Source: Escherichia coli
Lineage (GTDB): Bacteria > Pseudomonadota > Gammaproteobacteria > Enterobacterales > Enterobacteriaceae
NCBI RefSeq assembly: GCF_022846255.1
Contig: NZ_AP025682.1
Strand: one strand, 5' to 3'
Length of the DNA stretch: 64,000 nucleotides
The position numbers and the translations under genes were made by a program. Positions 14,652 to 62,033 of the stretch are shown one piece after another. A model generated the notes under the pieces. That model ran no database searches. It was not told the DNA's origin and was given only the letters and a program-made list of their open reading frames with translations. Every line of letters starts with the position of its first letter. Within the stretch, counting starts at the first letter, position 1.

Positions 14652-14682
14652 GCGGGCGGTGGTATTACCGCCCGTTTTTTAT
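14652..14682 (+). terminator. rho-independent terminator of potABCD
   Basis: gcgggcggtggtattaccgcccg hairpin followed by ttttttatt. Confidence 0.8.
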
Positions 14683-14700
14683 TTAGCAAGGATGTGGCTA

Positions 14701-15162
14701 ATGAGCCAGGACAGTAGAGTTTTCTTTCGTATATTCTTCGGTATCGGTCTGGTACTGATCCTCATTTCTGTTGTTATCTTTTATAACCAGTTCACCTATA
14801 GCAAAGACGCGATTCATACTGAAGGCGTCATTGTTGATACCGTCTGGCACTCCAGTCATTCTCATCGCACGGGTAAAAATGGTTCGTGGTATCCCGTCGT
14901 TGCCTTTCGTCCGACGCCAGATTACACGCTAATTTTCAATTCAAGTATTGGCAGCGATTTTTATGAAGACAGTGAAGGCGATAAAGTTAATGTTTATTAT
15001 TCTCCAGGACATCCTGAAAAGGCTGAGATAAATAACCCGTGGGTTAATTTTTTTAAATGGGGGTTTATCGGCATTATGGGCGTTATTTTTATCTCCGTCG
15101 GTTTATTAATCAGTATGCCCTACTCTAAAAAGACACGCAGGAAACGGAAGTCCCGCCCATGA
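14701..15162 (+). CDS. ymfA: inner membrane protein YmfA (DUF3592)
   Basis: ORF 14659-15162; start set after the potD terminator at MSQDSRVFF..., 153 aa. Confidence 0.8.
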
Positions 15163-56889: not shown

Positions 56890-58314
56890 TAATGCCAGTC
56901 AGTTAAGCAACTGACTGGCTCTTTTTCGGGGCTGTGGGGTATTTCCAGGGCCTCTCCTTTACCACTCTCGGGAAGGCCCTTTCCCTTCTTGTCGGTAATT
57001 TCACAAGTTGTCCCATACTTGCAAGATCGCGCATCAGCTCCGGTATACGTCCCGGTGAAGCGCCCTGCAATGTCATCAGCATTCTCATCACCATTCCACA
57101 TGATTCTGAGAAACTCAGTTGATTCGGCCAGTAACCTTTCAGATGTTCCGCCATTTTAATCATCTGATATCTCACCAGATTATAAGCCAGTAAGACACCC
57201 CACAGCTCTTGCTCCACAAGCTCCGGTTTTTTACTTCTCAGCGTCAGCCTGCTCAGTTGCATCGTCTGTTTTATCTCCCTGTATCCCAGTTCGATTTCCC
57301 AGCGATGACTGTACAGATCCGCCATTTCTCCTCCGGGGAAGCGCATGGCGTCCGTCATCGACGTCAGCAGATGGCAGACTTTTCCTTTGCGCGTCACGGT
57401 CAGCAGGCGGGCTGTCACTTCATTTCCCAGTCCCGGCCACTTTTTTCGTGCCTGCGGGCTGGTTTTCAGCTTCACCAGATGATCGCCTTTACCCAGTTTT
57501 CTGATCTCTTCATATTGCGCTCCCTTTCTGAGAGGTATCATCCAGTGGCGGTGTTCTCCCGCCAGGCTCCAGGCATTTAACAGTCCCAGTGAGTAATAAC
57601 CTTTATCCATTAACGTCAGAGTGTTATCGCCGGTTTGTTCTATAAGTTGCTCAGCAAGCTCATTTTCGCTGTTCTTCATCGTGCCGAAGGCTGCAGCCGT
57701 CAGCAGATGGCTGGTCAGTTCCATCTGGCAGACCATTTTGACCTGCGGGTAGAGCGCCGGGTTCCCGGCATGTGTCTGGCGGGGGAAGGCTGCATCGTTC
57801 TCTGGTGTATCCGGTGTGCGCCAGAACACACCATCGATGGCCAGCAGGGTCAGGCCGCACCAGTGCGGATGCGGCGTGGCGTTATGCCAGAGCTGCGCTG
57901 TTTTCGTGAACACGCGGCGGACAGCCTCACTTCCCAGGCGCTGGCGGGCCTGAATAACGGCACTGGGGGCAACGAAGGGGCGATTGCCCGGCAGCATGAT
58001 GTCCAGGCGATTCACAATCTGGTGAAGAGGTTCTTTACGCTCAAGCGCCATGCCAACAATACACCAGACCATCATTTCGAGGGGAAGACGGCGCTTGCGT
58101 AGCGTTACAGTACCTGATTCGGCAAGGCAACGAGAGATGAGTTCGGGGTCGAGGTAATCCCCCAGAGAAGTCAGTGGGTTACGCAGAGAATCGTAACGGG
58201 ATACCAGATCAAGAGCCTGTCCAATGTGCATAAAAAAATCCGGAAACAAGTGAGCGTTTCCGGATTCTTACACAGCCACTGGATCGGTCAACTGATCCTT
58301 AACTGATCGGCATT
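56890..58314 (-). mobile_element. IS4 insertion sequence (complete)
   Basis: 1425 bp; 18-bp imperfect terminal inverted repeats TAATGCCAGTCAGTTAAG / TAATGCCGATCAGTTAAG (16/18); full transposase ORF; flanked by an 11-bp direct repeat. Confidence 0.9.
56903..58231 (-). CDS. insG: IS4 transposase (DDE)
   Basis: ORF 56903-58249; start set at [16 protein letters not shown]..., 442 aa, matching the IS4 InsG sequence as I recall it. Confidence 0.92.
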
Positions 58315-58325
58315 ACAGCCTAGCT
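58315..58325. repeat. IS4 target-site duplication, right copy (CAGCCTAGCTG)
   Basis: Identical to 56879-56889. Confidence 0.8.
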
Positions 58326-58341
58326 GGGGGTTTTCTGTGCA

Positions 58342-58373
58342 CAAAAATGCCCGCCCCGGCGATCCCGGAGCGG
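58342..58373 (-). terminator. rho-independent terminator of flgL
   Basis: gcccgctccgggatcgccggggcgggc hairpin followed by attttt on the minus strand, 45 bp past the flgL stop. Confidence 0.7.
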
Positions 58374-58417
58374 GCAGACAAAACATACCCAGTTTCATGA
58401 TATGTTTTAAAGCGAGC

Positions 58418-59371
58418 TTATTTGTTGAGCTGGAAGAGCGACAATCCCTGCATATCGGTAAATGCTTTATACGATGCCTGCAATGCCGTTTGCTGCATGA
58501 TGTAAGATGAAATAGTTGCATTCCAGTCCACATCAACCAGATCGCTCATCTGCTGCGTTTGCCCTAAAGCGCGATCGCTACCTAATGAATCAAGCGACTC
58601 CAGTTCGTTCAGCTGCGTGCCTAATTCCGCGCGAACAGTCAGCACATTGTTCAGCGAGTTTTTCAGTCCGCGGTTGGTTTTATCCAGTGCCGCAGCGGCG
58701 GTTTCTTTATCCGCTTCGCTATCCGCGACCGGCGTTTTCAGGGCTGCGATGGCGCTATCCAGCATGGCAAAAAGATTGGTTTCAGAAGCGCTACCGTCTG
58801 GTTCCGCTACCGCGTTGCTGGTAATACTGTCGAAAATTTTGTCGCCCGTATGTCCTATCACCATCGAACGCGAAGCATCGACCTGTTGTTTAATACTTTC
58901 TGTTCCGCCGACATAATCACCGTCAGCCTCACTAAACGGCGCAGTCTCTGTTTTATAACCGGCAAAAATGTAGCGCCCGTTACCGTCAGTGGTGTTCGCC
59001 AGATTCAGTAACTGATCACGAAGCCCCTGAATATCCGTAGCCAGTGAGGCCCGGTCATCGTCACTCAAGGTGCCATTGCTGGCGTAGACAATTTTTTCCT
59101 GAGCATTCTGGATAGCAGTGGTGACCTGGCTAAGCACACTCTCTTCCAGTGACACTTTTTGAGTGGCGAAAGTACGCGCCAGCGTGTACTGGCTGTTTTG
59201 CGCCTGTGCCTGGGAGAGAACAACAGCTTGTGATGCAGCAATGGGATCGTCTGAAGGGTTAACGACTCGCTTACCCGTCGACATCTGTTCGCCGTACTTC
59301 ATCCATTCTGCCTGAGAATTGGTGATGCCGCGCATGTTTTGCTGGTACATCATCTGGGTACTGAAACGCAT
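58418..59371 (-). CDS. flgL: flagellar hook-associated protein 3 (hook-filament junction)
   Basis: 317 aa, FlgL-like. Confidence 0.94.
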   Translation of the reverse strand: MRFSTQMMYQQNMRGITNSQAEWMKYGEQMSTGKRVVNPSDDPIAASQAVVLSQAQAQNSQYTLARTFATQKVSLEESVLSQVTTAIQNAQEKIVYASNGTLSDDDRASLATDIQGLRDQLLNLANTTDGNGRYIFAGYKTETAPFSEADGDYVGGTESIKQQVDASRSMVIGHTGDKIFDSITSNAVAEPDGSASETNLFAMLDSAIAALKTPVADSEADKETAAAALDKTNRGLKNSLNNVLTVRAELGTQLNELESLDSLGSDRALGQTQQMSDLVDVDWNATISSYIMQQTALQASYKAFTDMQGLSLFQLNK

Positions 59372-59382
59372 TTTATCTCCCC

Positions 59383-61026
59383 TTAGCGAATGTTAATCAG
59401 CGCATCAAAAATCGCGTTTGCCGTCTGCAGAACCTGCGCATTCGCAAGGTAATACTGCTGAAAACGTTGCAGATTTCCATACTCCTCATCGAGATTGACA
59501 CCGGAAATCGACTGCTGCTGATTGGAAAGCTGCGTCACCACATTCCCTTGCGTGGTGCTACTGGTTTTCAACGTCGCGGTTTTATTACCGATATCACTCA
59601 CTAACGAGGCATAAGCGTCGTTAAAGGATTTCGCTCCGCCCACCGTTTTACTGTTGCTTTGCAGATCGAGCAGGGCCTGACCGTTGCGGTTGTCGCTATC
59701 ACCCGCATCTTCTGCGCTCGCCATGGCGATTTTCGCTTCGTCGGTGATTAATACATCCATGTTGACGATGGCGTCACTTACCGGTTTCAGTGTGAAGCTG
59801 TCGTTAACGGCAGGCGTTCCTGTAAACGTCAACTCCAGACCATCAAATGCCACTTTACCGTTGGCATCCGGCGTCACCGTAAAAGTGGTATTACTGGCAA
59901 GGCGGGTGACCTGCCACTGATTATTATCGAACGAGATTTTGTAATCTGTCGCCAGTACCGCGGAGGCATCAGTTACCGTTGCACCGATCGCAACGTCACC
60001 TTTGTTTTTCGTGTTTTGCAGAACCGTGGGCTTACCGATAGCAAAGAAATCTTCACCGGCAACGCCGTTAGCATCAAATCCGGCTTTGTGTTGGGTGTTG
60101 AAAGCTTCGGCAAATGCCAGCGCCAGTTGTCCAAGCGTATTACGCGTCTGGTCAAGATCCTGAGAACGGAATGTCAGAATGCCGCCCAGCGACCCGGTAT
60201 TCAGTAATTTTTCAGGGATCTCAATATTGCCTGCCGTCCCATCAACATAAGCGACAGTCGTACGAGAAGGGTCGGCGCTGGAAGGAACTGCCGCCAGCTG
60301 CCGCGCCGTACTTCCCTGAACCAGTGAGTAGCCATTGGCCATCGTGATGTTATAAGTGCCACCATCCTGAACGCTGACTTCTACGCCAACAATCTGGTTT
60401 AATTCGCTCACCAGTTGATCGCGTTGATCCAGCAGATTGTTAGGTGACGCCCCTGCCCCCACGCCTGTCAGGCGGGAGATCTGATCGTTCAGGCTGGCGA
60501 TTTGTTTAGCGTAATTGTTGATCTGATCAACGCTGGCACCTATCGCGATATTGACCTGTTTGTCCTGGTCGCGCAGATATTGATCGGTGGTTTTAAACTG
60601 ATTCACCAATCCTTCTGATTTCCCAATCAGCGCCTGGCGCGCTGCCGGATCTTCCGCGTTACTCACCAGCGTTTGCAGGCTGGTGAAGAAATCCTGCATC
60701 TGTGTTGCCAGCGAAGAGGTACTGGTGGAGAGCATATTGTCGATTTTCGACATCTGCTCATAGCGGGCGGTCAGGCCGCTACTTTGCGTCTGCGCAGCAC
60801 GTAACTGGTTGGTAATAAACGCATCATACTCACGCTGCACACCAGAAACGTAGACGCCATTGCCAACCCAGCCGCCAGCGCCCAACGTGCTATTGGCCTG
60901 CGCCATAATAGTGGTTTGGCGGGTATATCCGGCAACGTTATAGCTGGAGATATTATTACTTGCCGTATTTAACGCCGCCTGGGCCGCGTTCAGTCCGCTC
61001 ATGGCGTTATTGATCAAGCTGGACAT
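59383..61026 (-). CDS. flgK: flagellar hook-associated protein 1
   Basis: 547 aa, FlgK-like. Confidence 0.94.
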   Translation of the reverse strand: MSSLINNAMSGLNAAQAALNTASNNISSYNVAGYTRQTTIMAQANSTLGAGGWVGNGVYVSGVQREYDAFITNQLRAAQTQSSGLTARYEQMSKIDNMLSTSTSSLATQMQDFFTSLQTLVSNAEDPAARQALIGKSEGLVNQFKTTDQYLRDQDKQVNIAIGASVDQINNYAKQIASLNDQISRLTGVGAGASPNNLLDQRDQLVSELNQIVGVEVSVQDGGTYNITMANGYSLVQGSTARQLAAVPSSADPSRTTVAYVDGTAGNIEIPEKLLNTGSLGGILTFRSQDLDQTRNTLGQLALAFAEAFNTQHKAGFDANGVAGEDFFAIGKPTVLQNTKNKGDVAIGATVTDASAVLATDYKISFDNNQWQVTRLASNTTFTVTPDANGKVAFDGLELTFTGTPAVNDSFTLKPVSDAIVNMDVLITDEAKIAMASAEDAGDSDNRNGQALLDLQSNSKTVGGAKSFNDAYASLVSDIGNKTATLKTSSTTQGNVVTQLSNQQQSISGVNLDEEYGNLQRFQQYYLANAQVLQTANAIFDALINIR

Positions 61027-61059
61027 GGAGGTTCCTTATAAGCCTTCAATTACAGAGTA

Positions 61060-61086
61060 TTATCGGCAGCGACCCGCCGGACTTGA
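61060..61086 (-). promoter_or_regulatory. candidate sigma28 (FliA) class-3 promoter for flgKL
   Basis: Minus strand reads TCAAGTCC-N11-GCCGATAA; the -10 matches the sigma28 consensus GCCGATAA exactly; it lies in the 3' end of flgJ, about 35 bp upstream of the flgK ATG. Confidence 0.6.
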
Positions 61087-61091
61087 GTTAT

Positions 61092-62033
61092 TCAGAACAG
61101 ATTATCAATGTTCATACTGTAGGTTTTGCTCACTTTGTCGCTTATCGATTTCATCTGCTGAATCATGTTGGTGAGTTTGCGGGCATAGTGAGGATCGGTG
61201 GCATAGCCCGCGTCCTGTAGGGCCTGTGCCCCCTGCTCCGCACTCACGGCGGTCGTCACGGCAGCGTAGCGCGGATTACGTGTTAACAGCCCAACGTAAT
61301 CCGACAATGCTTCCAGATACGAGCTGTAGACCCGAAATTTCGCTTTTACTTTCTTCGCTTCGCCGTTTTCATATTCAGTCGTGGTGATTTCAGTGACTGG
61401 CCCTTTCCAGTTGCCAGAGGCTTTGACGCCAAACAGGTTGTAACTCGGCTCGCCGTTTTCGCGGCGGATTTGCCGTTGTCCCCAGCCAGATTCCAGCGCC
61501 GCCTGAGCGAGGATCAAATGATGTGGCACACCGCTTTGCTGGCTTGCCAGTTGGGCGGGCAGTGAGAGTTGCGCGAGGAATGCTTTACTGTTACCCGGCA
61601 ACGAATCATCGTAGTTACGTGGTACGGCCTTTTGCACCAGCTGAGAAAGCGCCTGATTTTGATAACGCACCACAGTTTCGAGCGGGAATTTCATCGGTGC
61701 TGCTGGCGTGGGCTCCTCTGGCAATGGTTGTTCTGGCGTCATCTGTTTAACCATCATCTCTGCAAGCCCCAGACCTTTGCCCGCCGTCATCTGTTGGGCA
61801 ATCTGCTGGTCATACATACTGGTATACAGGCGAGTGTGCTCGCTGCTGAACAGGCCATCTTTTGGTAAAGCGTCGCGCATGCTTTTCAACATCATCTGCA
61901 CGAACATCCCTTCCACCTGGCGGGCCACCGGACGGATATTTGCCGCTGGATCTTCGCCAGCTTTCGCCTTTAGTTCGTTGAGTGATTGCGCATCCCAGGC
62001 CGCACTTGCCAGTAGTTTGCTGTCGCTGATCAT
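61092..62033 (-). CDS. flgJ: flagellar rod-assembly protein / peptidoglycan hydrolase FlgJ
   Basis: ORF 61092-62063; start set at [16 protein letters not shown]..., 313 aa. Confidence 0.92.
   Translation of the reverse strand: MISDSKLLASAAWDAQSLNELKAKAGEDPAANIRPVARQVEGMFVQMMLKSMRDALPKDGLFSSEHTRLYTSMYDQQIAQQMTAGKGLGLAEMMVKQMTPEQPLPEEPTPAAPMKFPLETVVRYQNQALSQLVQKAVPRNYDDSLPGNSKAFLAQLSLPAQLASQQSGVPHHLILAQAALESGWGQRQIRRENGEPSYNLFGVKASGNWKGPVTEITTTEYENGEAKKVKAKFRVYSSYLEALSDYVGLLTRNPRYAAVTTAVSAEQGAQALQDAGYATDPHYARKLTNMIQQMKSISDKVSKTYSMNIDNLF

Follow-up and report, generated by a model that had tools for sequence, protein, structure and literature searches.

A FliA (sigma-28) site between flgJ and flgK: the K-12 flgKL class 3 promoter in another Escherichia coli strain

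We assign the element at positions 61060 to 61086 on the minus strand of the window, i.e., the whole stretch of 64,000 nucleotides analysed here, with near certainty to the class 3 sigma-28 promoter of the E. coli flgKL operon. It is identical to the K-12 flgKL class 3 promoter, which recurs here in a second E. coli strain, and orthologous to that of Salmonella; the element is therefore already known. The initial annotation of this DNA had read its function correctly; a real sigma-28 promoter was recognisable from the sequence, and the end of a gene was placed a few bases off. The decisive support for the assignment is the conservation of the element together with published binding data, not the motif match itself.

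Boxes, gene boundaries and predicted transcript start

Direct reading of the minus strand from 61086 to 61060 gave TCAAGTCC-N11-GCCGATAA, which reproduced the string, the coordinates and the spacer length of the initial annotation. Its match counts of eight and five out of eight for the two boxes were correct as well: the -10 box GCCGATAA is identical to the sigma-28 consensus in all eight positions, including the critical CGA core, and TCAAGTCC matches the -35 consensus TAAAGTTT at positions 1, 3, 4, 5 and 6, departing from it by a C at position 2 and by CC at positions 7-8. The two octamers are separated by 11 nt (61078-61068), and the motif, which shares the strand of flgK, ends 33 nt before the start codon of this gene. 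The genes on the minus strand follow each other in the order flgH, flgI, flgJ, flgK and flgL, after which rne is encoded on the plus strand. The features around the site are as follows.

61092..62033, minus strand: flgJ coding sequence, last gene of the class 2 flgBCDEFGHIJ unit (ORF list; Pfam Rod-binding and Glucosaminidase; RefSeq annotation of the identical sequence)
61079..61086, minus strand: -35 element TCAAGTCC of the flgKL sigma-28 promoter (direct reading; inside the 28-mer given as the K-12 flgKL FliA site)
61068..61078, minus strand: 11-nt spacer GGCGGGTCGCT (direct reading)
61060..61067, minus strand: -10 element GCCGATAA (direct reading; includes the core CGA)
61051..61054, minus strand: predicted transcription start region (by analogy with the aer sigma-28 promoter)
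61027..61050, minus strand: remainder of the short flgK leader (direct reading)
59383..61026, minus strand: flgK coding sequence for hook-filament junction protein 1, the first gene transcribed from the promoter (ORF list; Pfam FlgK_D1; RefSeq)
58418..59371, minus strand: flgL coding sequence, second gene of the operon (ORF list; RefSeq)
58341..58418, minus strand: FlgO small RNA, i.e., the flgL 3' UTR and 3' end of the flgKL transcript (K-12 b4826 via gap-free alignment)

The initial annotation had placed the promoter within the 3' end of flgJ, which is wrong by a few bases. From the reading and the ORF list, the TGA stop codon of flgJ occupies 61094-61092 and the ATG of flgK 61026-61024, leaving a spacer of 65 nt between them, and the -35 box starts at 61086, 5 nt past the stop codon. 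The RefSeq annotation of the identical sequence in strains 536 and K-12 shows the same end of flgJ and start of flgK, 65 nt apart, and a search using the 65-nt spacer returned no annotated feature beneath the motif. Because the stop codon, the RefSeq gene ends and the lack of an annotated feature all agree, the motif is intergenic. Membership in the class of intragenic FliA promoters (Fitzgerald 2014/2018) was considered and rejected, as the boxes of that class lie within a coding sequence, whereas here the flgJ stop codon at 61094-61092 precedes the motif, which starts at 61086. In most other species, too, the motif starts 4-11 nt past the upstream stop codon, which makes its location between genes a general feature. 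The promoter is internal to the long flgB-L transcription unit, yet outside the flgJ coding sequence.

In the aer sigma-28 promoter, the +1 position is the sixth base after the -10 octamer. The same rule points to 61054 in the sequence studied here, and the nearest purines are G 61053 and A 61051. By this analogy, transcription probably initiates at about 61054-61051, corresponding to about 1138350-1138353 of K-12 NC_000913.3, which would leave a leader of about 25-28 nt ahead of the flgK ATG; a Shine-Dalgarno sequence AAGGA is present at 61037-61033, 6 nt ahead of the start codon. The accessible supplement text of Kim 2012, Ettwiller 2016 and Yan 2018 contained no single-nucleotide start for flgK, and for this strain we infer the exact start nucleotide as well as the share of flgKL output contributed by the promoter. 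Neither a sigma-70-like promoter nor an intrinsic terminator was found at the flgJ-flgK junction between 60900 and 61300, which fits read-through from flgJ into flgK combined with a promoter of the sigma-28 type only. A possible small hairpin in the spacer, CGGCGGGTCGCTGCCG, was set aside because the spacer is unconserved across species. No Rfam family was detected at gathering score between 58000 and 61400, FlgO included; evidently, no model for this RNA reaches the threshold here.

Sequence score and conservation across Enterobacterales

The site was scored with a sigma-28 weight matrix derived from 24 published strong FliA sites, from which the flgK site itself was left out. It reached 16.2 bits and rank 4 in the window, while the best matches in 100 simulated windows of the same composition averaged 14.6 +/- 2.1 bits with a maximum of 20.0, so 16.2 bits falls in the range of the simulated windows and the sequence score alone carries no window-wide significance. 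Within the 65-nt spacer alone, which precedes a late flagellar gene, and on the appropriate strand, such a score has a probability of about 1e-3. The exact 27-mer is unique in the window, which is weak evidence by itself. The octamer GCCGATAA occurs in eight copies in the window compared to 2.0 expected, a number reached in none of 100 dinucleotide-preserving shuffles. Since seven of these eight copies do not coincide with a known FliA promoter, the octamer by itself indicates little.

The best match of the window to the matrix was another sequence, TAAAAATAACGCCCATAATGCCGATAAA at 15064-15091 on the minus strand, which scored 22.1 bits and exceeded all 100 simulated windows. This sequence is located within ymfA (14659-15162, plus strand) in antisense orientation, is present with the same sequence in K-12 and is not contained in the published list of K-12 FliA ChIP-seq sites. 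Its -35 box is devoid of the G of TAAAG, and a G-to-A change at this position decreased the activity of the aer promoter about 4-fold. Because this higher-scoring site is not a reported FliA site, a match to the sigma-28 motif alone is not discriminating.

To assess conservation, one genome per species was scanned with a degenerate pattern for the N-terminal FlgK sequence AMSGLxAAQ, which yielded 120 loci, almost all of them from Enterobacterales; the 150 nt upstream of flgK were readable in 111 of these. A site resembling TCAAGTyy-N11-GCCGATAA was present within these 150 nt in 109 of the 111 species, and the exceptions without a recognisable site upstream of flgK were Yersinia aldovae and a metagenome-assembled genome of Enterobacterales (L072). 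The 109 sites had a median score of 18.9 bits, compared to a 95th percentile of 7.8 bits for the controls, for which random segments of 150 nt were drawn from the same loci and the top score of each was taken. After anchoring the sequences on the motif, the information per column amounted to 1.58 bits in the -35 box, 0.15 bits in the spacer, 1.85 bits in the -10 box and 0.2-0.4 bits in the flanks. The spacer was 11 nt long in all 109 orthologous sites, with an unconserved sequence, while CCGAT was invariant (109/109) and the positions of TCAAGT were each retained in 103 to 109 of the 109 species. Two conserved boxes held at a fixed spacing, with a randomised spacer between them, form the kind of footprint that recognition by a sigma factor should leave. 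The distance from the motif to the flgK ATG varied from 29 to 102 nt across species.

The Salmonella flgK class 3 promoter is found at the orthologous position directly behind flgJ, with about 31 nt left to the flgK ATG, and the S. enterica subspecies arizonae and diarizonae carry the same TCAAGTCC, the same 11-nt spacing and the same GCCGATAA as E. coli, whereas the spacer sequence differs (ACGTCGTAGCT in Salmonella, GGCGGGTCGCT in E. coli). These orthologous sites with identical boxes link the E. coli element to a promoter studied experimentally in Salmonella, for which PMC4183435 cites Kutsukake & Ide 1995 and Wozniak 2010 as well as primer-extension work. The logic of dual class 2 and class 3 expression of flgKL is common to Salmonella and E. 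coli. Likewise, the promoters of tar (TAAAGTTT-N11-GCCGATAA), fliC and motA share the two-box layout, the 11-nt spacing, the sigma factor and the FlgM checkpoint with that of flgK. However, these three genes lose nearly all expression in a fliA deletion, whereas flgK is only partly fliA-dependent because it is also read through from the class 2 promoter.

The -35 boxes of the flgK promoters showed a pattern of their own. The non-consensus C instead of A at position 2 occurred in 103 of the 109 promoters, despite the complete randomisation of the spacer next to the box, and TT at positions 7-8 is replaced by CC or CT in Escherichia, Salmonella, Citrobacter and Enterobacter, which weakens the 3' half of their box further. 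In these four genera the variants TCAAGTCC and TCAAGTCT accompany leaders of 31-42 nt, and TCAAGTTT is mostly associated with leaders of about 80 nt (Serratia, Yersinia, Pantoea, Rahnella and Proteus). A TCAA(G/C) variant of the -35 box has also been reported at the ChIP-validated FliA sites of modA and fliL (PMC4183435). We tentatively consider, as a rather speculative option, that the sub-consensus -35 box may be under selection, either tuning class 3 expression against class 2 read-through or accommodating an overlapping signal at the flgJ stop codon. If so, the departures from the consensus would reflect more than a simple tolerance of sigma-28 for those bases.

Published data for the identical sequence and the weight of the promoter

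The 65-nt flgJ-flgK spacer is base-for-base identical to that of K-12 MG1655, and over 131 nt around the motif the two strains differ by a single silent change inside flgK. Several E. coli genomes, among them that of strain 536, match the sequence with 100% identity over 401 nt around the site. The region was found in 5,425 of 5,426 complete E. coli genomes, and the identical spacer in 4,931 of 5,424. Because of this identity with K-12 and most other genomes, published K-12 data are directly applicable to the strain studied here. The K-12 flgKL class 3 promoter described in PMC4183435 has the same 28-mer TCAAGTCCGGCGGGTCGCTGCCGATAAT, the same 65-nt spacer and the same flanking genes, and the promoter itself shows no difference.

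Occupancy by FliA-RNA polymerase is supported by two published data sets on the identical K-12 sequence. The 28-mer is the K-12 FliA ChIP-seq site assigned to flgKL, and its FAT (fold-above-threshold) score of 47 is among the strong peaks of the table (Fitzgerald 2014, Table 2, PMC4183435); genomic SELEX with the sigma-28 holoenzyme yielded a peak of 27.2 between flgJ and flgK, which is among the higher peaks (Shimada 2017, PMC5493296). RT-PCR across the flgJ-flgK junction demonstrated that flgKL is also present on the FlhDC-dependent transcript of the flgB operon by read-through, and overexpression of fliA restored flgK expression in an flhD deletion (both Fitzgerald 2014, PMC4183435). The ChIP-seq site and the RT-PCR result bear out the proposal of the initial annotation that a FliA-dependent class 3 promoter of flgKL exists beside class 2 read-through from flgB. 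In another study, deletion of fliA decreased flgK 5.5-fold and flgL 4.9-fold, and its overexpression increased flgK 2.2-fold and raised flgL as well (Zhao 2007, PMC1935009). The flgKL promoter has also been counted among eight well-characterised sigma-28 promoters, with no clear binding of CRP (Hollands 2009, PMC2859248), and FlgO is sigma-28-dependent, being processed from its parental mRNA and originating from the flgL 3' UTR (Melamed 2023, PMC10578931).

In the proposed mechanism, FliA (sigma-28) RNA polymerase would recognise TCAAGTCC as the -35 and GCCGATAA as the -10 element, with 11 bp between the two. As long as the hook-basal body is unfinished, the anti-sigma factor FlgM stays in the cell and blocks FliA; the export of FlgM then releases the sigma factor (as summarised in PMC4183435). 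Because of this hold, the promoter would deliver FlgK and FlgL, the hook-filament junction proteins, together with FlgO at a late stage and independently of FlhDC. This output would come on top of class 2 read-through from flgB, which continues into flgK since the junction with flgJ lacks a terminator. The junction proteins would then be made early by class 2 read-through and late by FliA after FlgM export. The flgKL promoter is a textbook part of the enterobacterial flagellar hierarchy, and nothing new about flagellar regulation follows from its presence in this strain.

How much the promoter contributes is less firmly set, and we give a limited but appreciable chance to the reading that FliA-RNA polymerase binds a functionally minor site: nearly all flgKL mRNA would then come from class 2 read-through from flgB, and the sigma-28 site would matter only in filament repair, swarming or similar situations, or hardly at all. 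RNA-seq values for flgK fell from 318 to 138 in a fliA deletion, a change that was not flagged as significant; the deletion had little or no effect on the dual-regulated genes, while deletion of flhDC decreased them more than 100-fold, and the authors concluded that FliA adds little to dual-regulated transcripts under their conditions (Fitzgerald 2014, PMC4183435). It would also agree with a minor role that E. coli has the weaker TCAAGTCC form of the -35 box, as opposed to TCAAGTTT in many other genera. However, both boxes are under purifying selection in 109 of 111 species while the spacer beside them is fully randomised, which speaks for a function of some importance, and the levels of FlgO are sigma-28-dependent (PMC10578931). 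In addition, Salmonella reportedly needs its class 3 flgKL promoter to swarm and to repair flagella after shearing (Wozniak 2010, cited in PMC4183435), although these are data on Salmonella, not on E. coli.

Two further explanations dispense with a sigma-28 promoter altogether, and both appear far less probable. The conserved blocks might serve RNA processing, translational coupling or the binding of a regulator in the read-through transcript, with a coincidental likeness to sigma-28 boxes, as might be suspected from their position only 4-11 nt past the upstream stop codon in most species and from the conservation of the C at -35 position 2 despite its departure from the consensus. This is very improbable: the conserved bases are exactly those of the two sigma-28 boxes, whose distance of 11 nt is constant although the sequence between them varies, a signature of DNA recognition by a sigma factor rather than of RNA structure, the variation of the distance to the ATG between 29 and 102 nt argues against a signal at the RNA level, and there is no match to an Rfam family. 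The other explanation, a chance sigma-28-like match without promoter activity, has so little probability left that we regard it as effectively refuted by the ChIP-seq and SELEX binding published for the identical sequence and by the two-block conservation over more than 100 species, even though the matrix score is not significant window-wide, GCCGATAA occurs eight times in the window and the antisense site in ymfA scores higher (22.1 bits) without being a reported FliA site.

An insertion downstream of flgL and FlgO

Outside the promoter, an insertion of about 3 kb close behind flgL and FlgO sets the strain apart from K-12. Compared to both K-12 and strain 536, the additional DNA occupies 55311-58338, between the 3' end of FlgO/flgL and rne, and contains the following features.

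56873-56907 and 58298-58332: inverted repeats of an IS4 element, whose transposase is encoded at 56906-58249 on the minus strand
56307-56813, minus strand: IS200-like Y1 transposase
55666-56172, plus strand: ORF for a GNAT acetyltransferase

The whole arrangement of IS4, IS200-like and GNAT genes in one place was present in no complete E. coli genome of the collection. FlgO (58341-58418) is intact, and the insertion begins about 2 nt beyond its annotated end.
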